From IMG/VR virus record IMGVR_UViG_638341086_000010: 39,725 bases of DNA, one strand, 5' to 3'. Every line of letters begins with the position of its first letter. Position 1 is the first letter of the stretch. The position numbers were made by a program, and so were the translations under genes. This DNA comes from a virus (lineage: Duplodnaviria > Heunggongvirae > Uroviricota > Caudoviricetes). Shown one piece after another: positions 24,050 to 24,437 of this stretch. The notes under the pieces were generated by a model. That model was given only the letters and a program-made list of their open reading frames with translations, was not told the origin of the DNA and searched no databases.

Positions 24050-24226
24050 TGTTCATTCCACGGACAAAAACAGAGAAAGGAAACGACAGAGGCCAAAAAG
24101 CTCGCTTTCAGCACCTGTCGTTTCCTTTCTTTTCAGAGGGTATTTTAAATAAAAACATTAAGTTATGACGAAGAAGAACGGAAACGCCTTAAACCGGAAA
24201 ATTTTCATAAATAGCGAAAACCCGCG

Positions 24227-24238
24227 AGGTCGCCGCCC
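24227..24238 (-). other. cos: cos site: cosN 12-nt cohesive-end sequence (GGGCGGCGACCT on the minus strand), with cosB between it and nu1 and lambda-like right-end sequence on the other side
   Basis: Plus strand reads aggtcgccgccc followed by cgtaacctgtcggatcgccggaaaggacccgc, the reverse complement of the lambda left cohesive end and right-end sequence as recalled. Confidence 0.85.
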
Positions 24239-24437
24239 CGTAACCTGTCGGATCGCCGGAAAGGACCCGCAAAATGATAATAATTATCATCTACATGTCA
24301 CAACGTGCATCTACGCCATCAAACCACGTCAAATAATCAATTATGACGCAGGTATCGTATTAATTGATCTGCATCAACTTAACGTAAAAACAACTTCAGA
24401 CAATACAAATCAGCGACACTGAATACGGGGCAACCTC

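Follow-up and report, generated by a model that had tools for sequence, protein, structure and literature searches.

The defective prophage studied here very probably carries a working-type cos in its normal place, fully functional in appearance and of lambda packaging specificity, within a DLP12-type prophage from which a recent, IS-marked loss of 5.3 kb removed Q, the late-promoter region, nmpC, the holin, endolysin and spanin genes and most of bor while missing cos; this degree of confidence applies to the explanation as a whole. In the window, which is the entire 39,725-nt stretch of DNA analyzed in this study, a complete lambda-type cos occupies positions 24050-24290 on the minus strand, directly upstream of full-length nu1 and A. 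Its parts follow one another in the order cosQ, cosN, I2, R3, I1, R2 and R1:

24262-24268, minus strand: cosQ, GGGTCCT, identical to lambda 48473-48479
24224-24241, minus strand: 18-bp cosN core, ACGGGGCGGCGACCTCGC, identical to lambda
24227-24238, minus strand: 12-nt 5' cohesive end, GGGCGGCGACCT, identical to lambda, inside the partly symmetric cosN
24189-24221, minus strand: I2, spacer between cosN and cosB (lambda 18-50), identical to lambda, with the critical bp 30-35 at 24204-24209
24174-24189, minus strand: cosB R3, AGGCGTTTCCGTTCTT (lambda 50-65), identical to lambda
24131-24173, minus strand: I1, interval between R3 and R2, identical to lambda 66-108, with an IHF site predicted from this identity
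24115-24130, minus strand: cosB R2, AGAAAGGAAACGACAG (lambda 109-124), identical to lambda, inverted relative to R3 and R1
24101..24102, minus strand: 1-bp difference between R2 and R1, where lambda G138 is absent
24074-24089, minus strand: cosB R1, CTGTCGTTTCCTTTCT (lambda 151-166), identical to lambda

Lambda bp 1 falls at window position 24238; on the minus strand, the lambda left end runs downwards from this position and the right end upwards from 24239. Alignment with MAFFT to lambda (NC_001416) showed that bp 1-137 and 139-190 are unchanged and that the absence of G138 is the sole difference. Consequently, the spacing between cosN and R3 is the same as in lambda, because bp 1-137 are all identical. 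An earlier note on this DNA had described cosN as apparently intact and had called for an element-by-element comparison of cosQ, cosN and cosB with lambda. The comparison bears out the description: the 18-bp core, the 12-nt cohesive end and every other subsite (cosQ, I2, R3, the I1 interval, R2 and R1) are those of NC_001416, and no point changes in cosN or in the R sites of cosB, which that note had named as evidence against an intact site, were seen. The cosN core has one match in the whole window, whereas chance would give only about 0.02, even if up to three mismatches were tolerated. By the match to lambda, the nicks fall at 24239/24238 on the minus strand and at 24227/24226 on the plus strand. 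The R2 16-mer is an exact inverted repeat of R1. For cosQ, we take the lambda coordinates to be 48473-48479 (Wieczorek and Feiss 2001), which agree with the conserved 7-mer.

R3 is the critical TerS binding site, and its extent (bp 50-65) follows PMC9026076; the extent (bp 18-50) and role of I2 and its critical bp 30-35 follow PMC4856287. cosQ is needed for the terminating cut (PMC4669245, PMC4856287). On the right-end side, the window (24649-24239) is 96.1% identical to lambda 48092-48502, in agreement with the lambda-like right end noted earlier. Five substitutions relative to lambda lie within the 241-bp interval (48444, 48459, 48467, 48471 and 48486), but none is in cosQ; those nearest to it, 48471 and 48486, are both outside the 7 bp. 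Since all of the subsites are those of lambda, this cos should serve as a substrate for any terminase of lambda specificity. From its identity to lambda and to plaque-forming phages, we infer that the terminase of a helper would cleave it.

The absence of G138 shortens the spacing between R2 and R1 from 26 to 25 bp. The start codon of nu1 lies at window 24049, and the distance between the cohesive end and this ATG is 177 nt (24050-24226). The earlier note had given 178 nt, as in lambda, a figure that has to be corrected because of the missing base. G138 is also absent in five of five wild lambda relatives (PhiR68_2, PhiR11_1, Turner, PhiR34_1 and mEp332), as well as in DLP12 of K-12. All five relatives are deposited as phage genomes, and their records name propagation hosts (K-12 MG1655, ECOR13) or an environmental source; PhiR68.2 has been used in efficiency-of-plaquing assays (2025 preprint). 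A 302-bp cos segment, equivalent to lambda 48400-48502 plus 1-199, is 100% identical between the window and PhiR68_2 (PV340576), PhiR11_1 (PV340547) and Turner (PP925837). Because these differences from lambda are common to plaque-forming relatives, the missing G138 and the right-end changes are, on this comparison, no defect.

The terminase genes and the remaining late genes are colinear with those of lambda:

23504-24049, minus strand: nu1, terminase small subunit, 181 aa, full-length ORF with two substitutions relative to lambda
21604-23529, minus strand: A, terminase large subunit, 641 aa, full-length ORF with four substitutions relative to lambda
5339-21607, minus strand: W, B, C/nu3, D, E, FI, FII, Z, U, V, G/T, H, M, L, K, I and J, uninterrupted

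Both terminase genes are thus full length, as the earlier note had claimed. Nu1 differs from lambda gpNu1 by A75T and L132I only. Its recognition helix comprises residues 17-24 and its wing residues 31-39 (PMC9026076); both substitutions are outside these elements, and the DNA-binding region (wHTH) is the same as that of lambda. The window Nu1 is also 100% identical to that of PhiR68_2. Since both the cos segment and Nu1 match PhiR68_2 exactly, cos and its cognate recognition protein are, judging from this identity, those of a working phage, and their specificity is that of lambda. A tblastn search with the lambda proteins returned a full-length match without stops for every late protein from Nu1 to J, and window 24238-5781 follows lambda 1-18461 colinearly, with 97.4% identity. 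Beyond J are lom, a 1008-aa side tail fibre, tfa and a Pin-type invertase. The invertase gene is intact (319-909, plus strand) and adjoins the side tail-fibre genes tfa/stf (1007-4608, minus strand). A full-length Rfam match to IS009 (216 bits; 1041-1239, minus strand) lies inside the tail-fibre assembly gene tfa; this match and the frameshift pseudoknot of the IS element described below were the only hits of the Rfam search of the window.

On the other side of cos, the following features were identified:

24438-24632, plus strand: ylcI-type 64-aa ORF in the part of the lambda right arm between bor and cos; the F8704-2 equivalent is annotated ylcI (YlcI/YnfO family)
24993-25055, plus strand: bor/iss stub of the first 21 codons, cut by the IS element (tblastn, lambda Bor residues 1-23)
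25056-26365, plus strand: IS3-family element of the IS629/IS1203 type, 1310 bp, with transposase ORFs of 108 aa and 296 aa
26429-27226, minus strand: ybcM, in the order of F8704-2 and PhiR68_2
27236-27787, minus strand: ybcL (NCBIfam YbcL, 1.6e-120)
28252-29778, minus strand: ybcK, in the order of F8704-2 and PhiR68_2
30033-30365, minus strand: emrE (NCBIfam EmrE, 3.2e-72)
30433-34078: replication and immunity region with ren, P, O, cII-like and cro (minus strand) and cI, an S24-type repressor (plus strand)
38335-38706, plus strand: xis, 123 aa, overlapping int
38562-39725, plus strand: intD, argU-type integrase, 387 aa, ending exactly at the last base of the window

By this gene content, the prophage is a full-length DLP12-family, lambda-like temperate phage with an argU-type integrase and emrE-ybcKLM cargo. 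The cargo block emrE-ybcK-ybcL-ybcM (26429-30365) is placed between ren and the nin-like region, as is typical of the DLP12 family, on the cosQ (upstream) side of cos and in the same order as in F8704-2 and PhiR68_2. The immunity region is 99.8% identical to that of phage PhiR34_1 over 2,101 bp. After cro/cI come kil, gam, bet, exo, a Dam-like methylase, and then xis and the integrase; O, P, bet, exo and gam all have their full length. Between exo and an orf61-like gene stands a gene for a 185-aa phage N6-adenine methyltransferase (36871-37428, plus strand); F8704-2 has it as well, and PhiR68_2 and Turner lack it. Between cI and kil (34078-34590), the usual place of N in lambdoid phages, neither a lambda N homolog nor any ORF of at least 60 aa was found as a candidate N-type antiterminator, and the viable relative Turner shows the same N-less gap.

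The integrase is 99.7% identical to those of PhiR68_2, Turner, ev243 and 2G7b, and 100% identical to intD of E. coli O39:NM F8704-2, which adjoins tRNA-Arg. In the latter strain, the undeleted form of the same prophage is found next to argU (NZ_CP050998, 1841361-1915000), with the annotation intD, emrE, ybcK, ybcL, ybcM, ybcN, ninE, ybcO, rusA, ylcG, quuD, porin, essD, rrrD, rzpD, iss, ylcI and nohD; its pin and nmpC are each split by an IS3-family element. The free-living members PhiR68_2 (49.7 kb) and Turner (48.2 kb) have the same int, xis and emrE. Look-ups of the exact Stf, J and TerL proteins returned relatives that are 99.9% identical, none of them identical to the window. The xis ORF encodes a P22-type excisionase and overlaps the start of int by 145 nt. 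At its place in F8704-2, RefSeq annotates only a 63-bp 'incomplete HTH protein', and most phage records carry no annotation there. The suspicion raised by this fragment, that xis is a pseudogene, was rejected, as the 123-aa ORF is conserved in viable phages: PhiR68_2, Turner, ev243 and 2G7b all have it with 100% identity. No tRNA genes were found within the window; the argU tRNA lies outside it.

The defect of the prophage is located at the IS element. Near-identical copies of this element are annotated as IS1203 family, and Rfam detects an ALIL frameshift pseudoknot in it at 25391-25507. The element stands in place of PhiR68_2 14459-19773 (5,315 bp) and of 16816-23442 of the F8704-2 locus. 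The deleted genes are ybcN-ninE-ybcO-rusA-ylcG-Q-nmpC-S-R-Rz and all but 21 codons of bor; the DLP12-type equivalents quuD, essD, rrrD and rzpD are located in this segment. Using tblastn, no homologs of lambda Q, S, R, Rz or Rz1 were found in the window. This confirms the absence of Q and lysis genes claimed earlier and extends it, since the prophage has lost everything between Q and S, the interval that holds pR' in lambda. The element is bordered by two different triplets (ACG and TAA) and thus has no target duplication, which is in keeping with a deletion associated with the IS and not with a plain insertion.

The flanks of the deletion are nearly unchanged. The 13.4 kb that extends from int to a point shortly after ybcM is 99.96% identical to the undeleted F8704-2 prophage, and the 24.3 kb between bor and pin is 99.4% identical to it. 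The Q-porin-holin-lysozyme-Rz-Bor arrangement was undeleted in all 23 of the contigs read that encode an identical TerL. The IS junction was searched by megablast in complete E. coli genomes, with the 4-kb region and both 191-bp junctions as queries, and by scans for the exact pattern in GTDB representatives, IMG/VR and JGI metagenomes; it was absent from all four collections and is known from a single assembly. Two 'full-coverage' megablast rows were rejected as junction carriers because they joined separate pieces lying hundreds of bases apart. The deletion therefore looks recent, since its flanks are near-identical to those of undeleted siblings, and private, since its junction was found nowhere else. 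It ends about 0.8 kb short of cos. The intact state of cos would then be explained by recent damage that did not reach it and left no time for decay. The description of cos as 'retained' in the earlier note is overstated in this respect: with a private and recent deletion, nothing suggests selective maintenance.

What such a cos can do for the cargo depends on the direction of packaging. TerS binds the R sites of cosB across an IHF bend and TerL nicks cosN; the terminase stays on the cosB-bearing end, and the DNA is translocated from that end (PMC4669245, PMC9026076, PMC4856287, PMC8575938). Lambda packaging starts at cosN, proceeds towards cosB and nu1, and needs a downstream cosQ plus cosN to terminate (PMC4669245, PMC9026076, PMC8575938). 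Packaging without proper termination is lethal for the particle (PMC4669245, PMC9026076, PMC4856287, PMC8575938). In the coordinates of the window, packaging runs from 24238 to 1, and emrE (30033-30365) is on the opposite, cosQ side, upstream of the start. A lambda-specificity terminase provided in trans would bind R3 together with R2, spanning the IHF bend, and nick cosN, and the DNA would then be pumped from nu1 to J, in the direction of decreasing coordinates. A finished infectious particle would need a second cosQ-cosN some 38-51 kb downstream, which is roughly the packaging range of lambda. Such a second site would exist only after excision of the prophage and concatemer formation, or with the prophage in tandem with another of lambda type; emrE would then be carried as the last-packaged part of the cos-to-cos unit. 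If the distal arm resembles that of PhiR68_2, the predicted unit is about 44.5 kb, within the lambda range. From a prophage that is still integrated, a cut at cos would deliver only nu1-J, the tail-fibre genes and the distal chromosome, without termination. Unterminated packaging in place is said to correspond to the docL particles of Sternberg and Weisberg (1975). Thus, because packaging is directional and emrE is upstream of its start, an integrated cos could not feed emrE into a head. The earlier note had proposed that cos could mobilize the locus, including emrE. The part of this claim that concerns an intact cos of lambda specificity stands; the part that would make emrE mobile through cos alone does not, since emrE is on the wrong side and a second cos is needed. 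An intact cos by itself does not make upstream cargo such as emrE mobile.

The in-window needs for the route by excision and replication look intact, namely int, xis, O, P, Red/Gam and the immunity region, whereas attL and attR of the prophage are outside the window. Excision, replication and transfer of the prophage are inferred steps. F8704-2 has attL at argU. For attR, every locus reaching past pin was searched with k-mers taken from argU, the 45-bp core and the distal phage arm, and none was found; in F8704-2, the only sibling read far enough, neither the 45-bp argU core (TGGCGCGCCCTGCAGGATTCGAACCTGCGGCCCACGACTTAGAAG) nor the distal phage arm is present within 30 kb of the tail-fibre end. 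A 12-14-mer match in tssC was rejected as attR, as it is a single chance match. Past the tail-fibre genes, where viable phages have appY-ompT-attR, F8704-2 continues with a hydrolase gene, an IS66 element and Rhs/T6SS genes; the closest relatives of the window (99.97%) have the same hydrolase gene after ybcY. Since the sibling F8704-2 lacks the attR core and the distal arm within 30 kb, excision may already have been lost in this lineage.

Several other readings of the locus were considered. It is extremely improbable that cos no longer functions and is decaying as the relic of a dead prophage. The prophage is defective, its cosB differs in length from that of lambda by 1 bp and its right end by five substitutions, but all of these differences recur in plaque-forming relatives, three of which share the 302-bp segment exactly, and cosQ, cosN, I2, R3, R2 and R1 are unchanged. 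Another idea, that the element is an adapted PICI-like satellite keeping cos to hijack helper phages, is almost certainly wrong, even though it would account for a cos accompanied by its own int/xis, replication genes and cargo in the absence of lysis genes and late-gene control, and lambda-like helpers are known to package cos-type PICIs (PMC9026076, PMC6739421). PICIs and satellites are small and have no virion structural genes, whereas this element is about 40 kb or more and has a complete Nu1-to-J set of head, tail and terminase genes, which a satellite would not need. In addition, the gene beside its cos is an ordinary Nu1 and not Rpp; its cosB complex is of the phage type, with R3, R2 and R1, unlike PICI cos, which is without phage R sites (PMC9026076); and its defect is a private IS-flanked deletion with flanks 99.96% identical to the undeleted form. 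It is also conceivable that the late operon is not wholly silent. With the Q-to-S interval deleted, an uninterrupted same-strand path of about 9 kb leads from cro to nu1, so that transcripts from pR might read through O-P-ren-emrE-ybcKLM and the IS element into nu1, and the prophage might package itself and remain trapped for want of lysis genes. This is quite unlikely. In simple scans, that strand had no strong terminator-like site in the vicinity of cos, but the counts of these terminator and promoter scans around cos are near chance; moreover, no antiterminator was identified, and the IS element and several gene ends are in the path.

A further possibility, the full claim of the earlier note, is that induction of a co-resident lambda-type helper leads to packaging of the whole defective prophage, emrE included, through this cos, and that transfer occurs at a meaningful frequency. 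The intact cos with its lambda specificity, the predicted unit of a size that lambda can package, and the match of int, xis, O, P, bet, exo, gam and the immunity region to viable phages all speak for it. Complementation in trans of a lambda defective in packaging is also routine with a helper; for example, the phage yield of Aam42 rises about 2000-fold with an A+ helper (PMC4856287). We nevertheless regard such transfer as unlikely. Excision and concatemers are required because emrE is upstream of the packaging start, no attR was found within 30 kb in the chromosome of the sibling F8704-2, and no helper is seen within the window. A helper of the same immunity would not be independently de-repressed, and a heteroimmune helper would de-repress the prophage only via the SOS response. 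A more novel reading, which we consider highly unlikely, is a natural full-size, helper-dependent 'proto-satellite' that would excise and replicate on SOS, be packaged by co-induced relatives and spread emrE. Any co-induced relative might package it, because its cos is that of common phages of lambda specificity. If true, it would spread emrE while being unable to kill its host alone, and would capture the transition from phage to satellite at its first step. The preferred explanation remains a working-type cos in its normal place that a recent deletion missed.

On that explanation, the finding itself is ordinary and already known: a lambda-type cos in a prophage unable to make phage is the normal state in E. 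coli, since about three-quarters of complete E. coli genomes carry such a cos. The 241-bp cos segment was matched, at a coverage of at least 80%, in 3,971 of 5,426 complete genomes; among genomes with any match, the median number of cos-like matches was two, and in 766 records the best match was at least 99% identical. That a helper packages defective DNA with a cos belongs to the textbook knowledge of lambda genetics. Such packaging has long been established for the cos DNA of defective lambdas, of cosmids and of cos-type PICIs (PMC4856287, PMC9026076). emrE and ybcK are carried by PhiR68_2 and Turner, and PhiR68_2 also has ybcL/M, nmpC, appY and ompT. Because plaque-forming relatives, including PhiR68.2 and Turner, also carry emrE and are deposited as complete phage genomes, emrE, ybcK and other genes of the 'cryptic' DLP12 family can already travel by ordinary lysogenic conversion.

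Several known systems are close to the site. The cos of lambda (NC_001416; definitions of the Feiss laboratory) has the same subsites in the same order and the same place upstream of nu1-A, together with the same Nu1 DNA-binding region; it differs in having G138 between R2 and R1 and by five non-subsite substitutions on the right-end side of cosN. The full-length DLP12-type phages PhiR68_2, PhiR11_1 and Turner share the 302-bp cos (100%), int/xis, emrE-ybcK and the late genes with the window. These three phages keep ybcN-rusA-Q-nmpC-S-R-Rz-bor, whereas the window has the IS629/IS1203-type element there. The cryptic DLP12 prophage of K-12 MG1655 (ylcI-cos-nohD) belongs to the same family and has the same type of argU site; it makes no phage and has a near-intact cos, 97.9% identical, next to nohD. 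Its cosQ and cosN are intact, and changes occur at lambda bp 53, 73, 85 and 102; the change at bp 53 falls inside R3, whereas R3 of the window is without it. K-12 DLP12 keeps Q and the lysis genes, has lost almost all of its structural genes and has a truncated terminase large subunit, so the window is the opposite case. Finally, cos-type PICIs (EcCICFT073 / PICI-A) and cosmids resemble the prophage as non-autonomous DNA that is cos-packaged by a lambda-like helper (PMC9026076, PMC6739421, PMC6092414). PICIs, however, are small, have neither structural genes nor phage-type R sites, and redirect TerS by means of Rpp (PMC9026076); none of these features occurs in the window.
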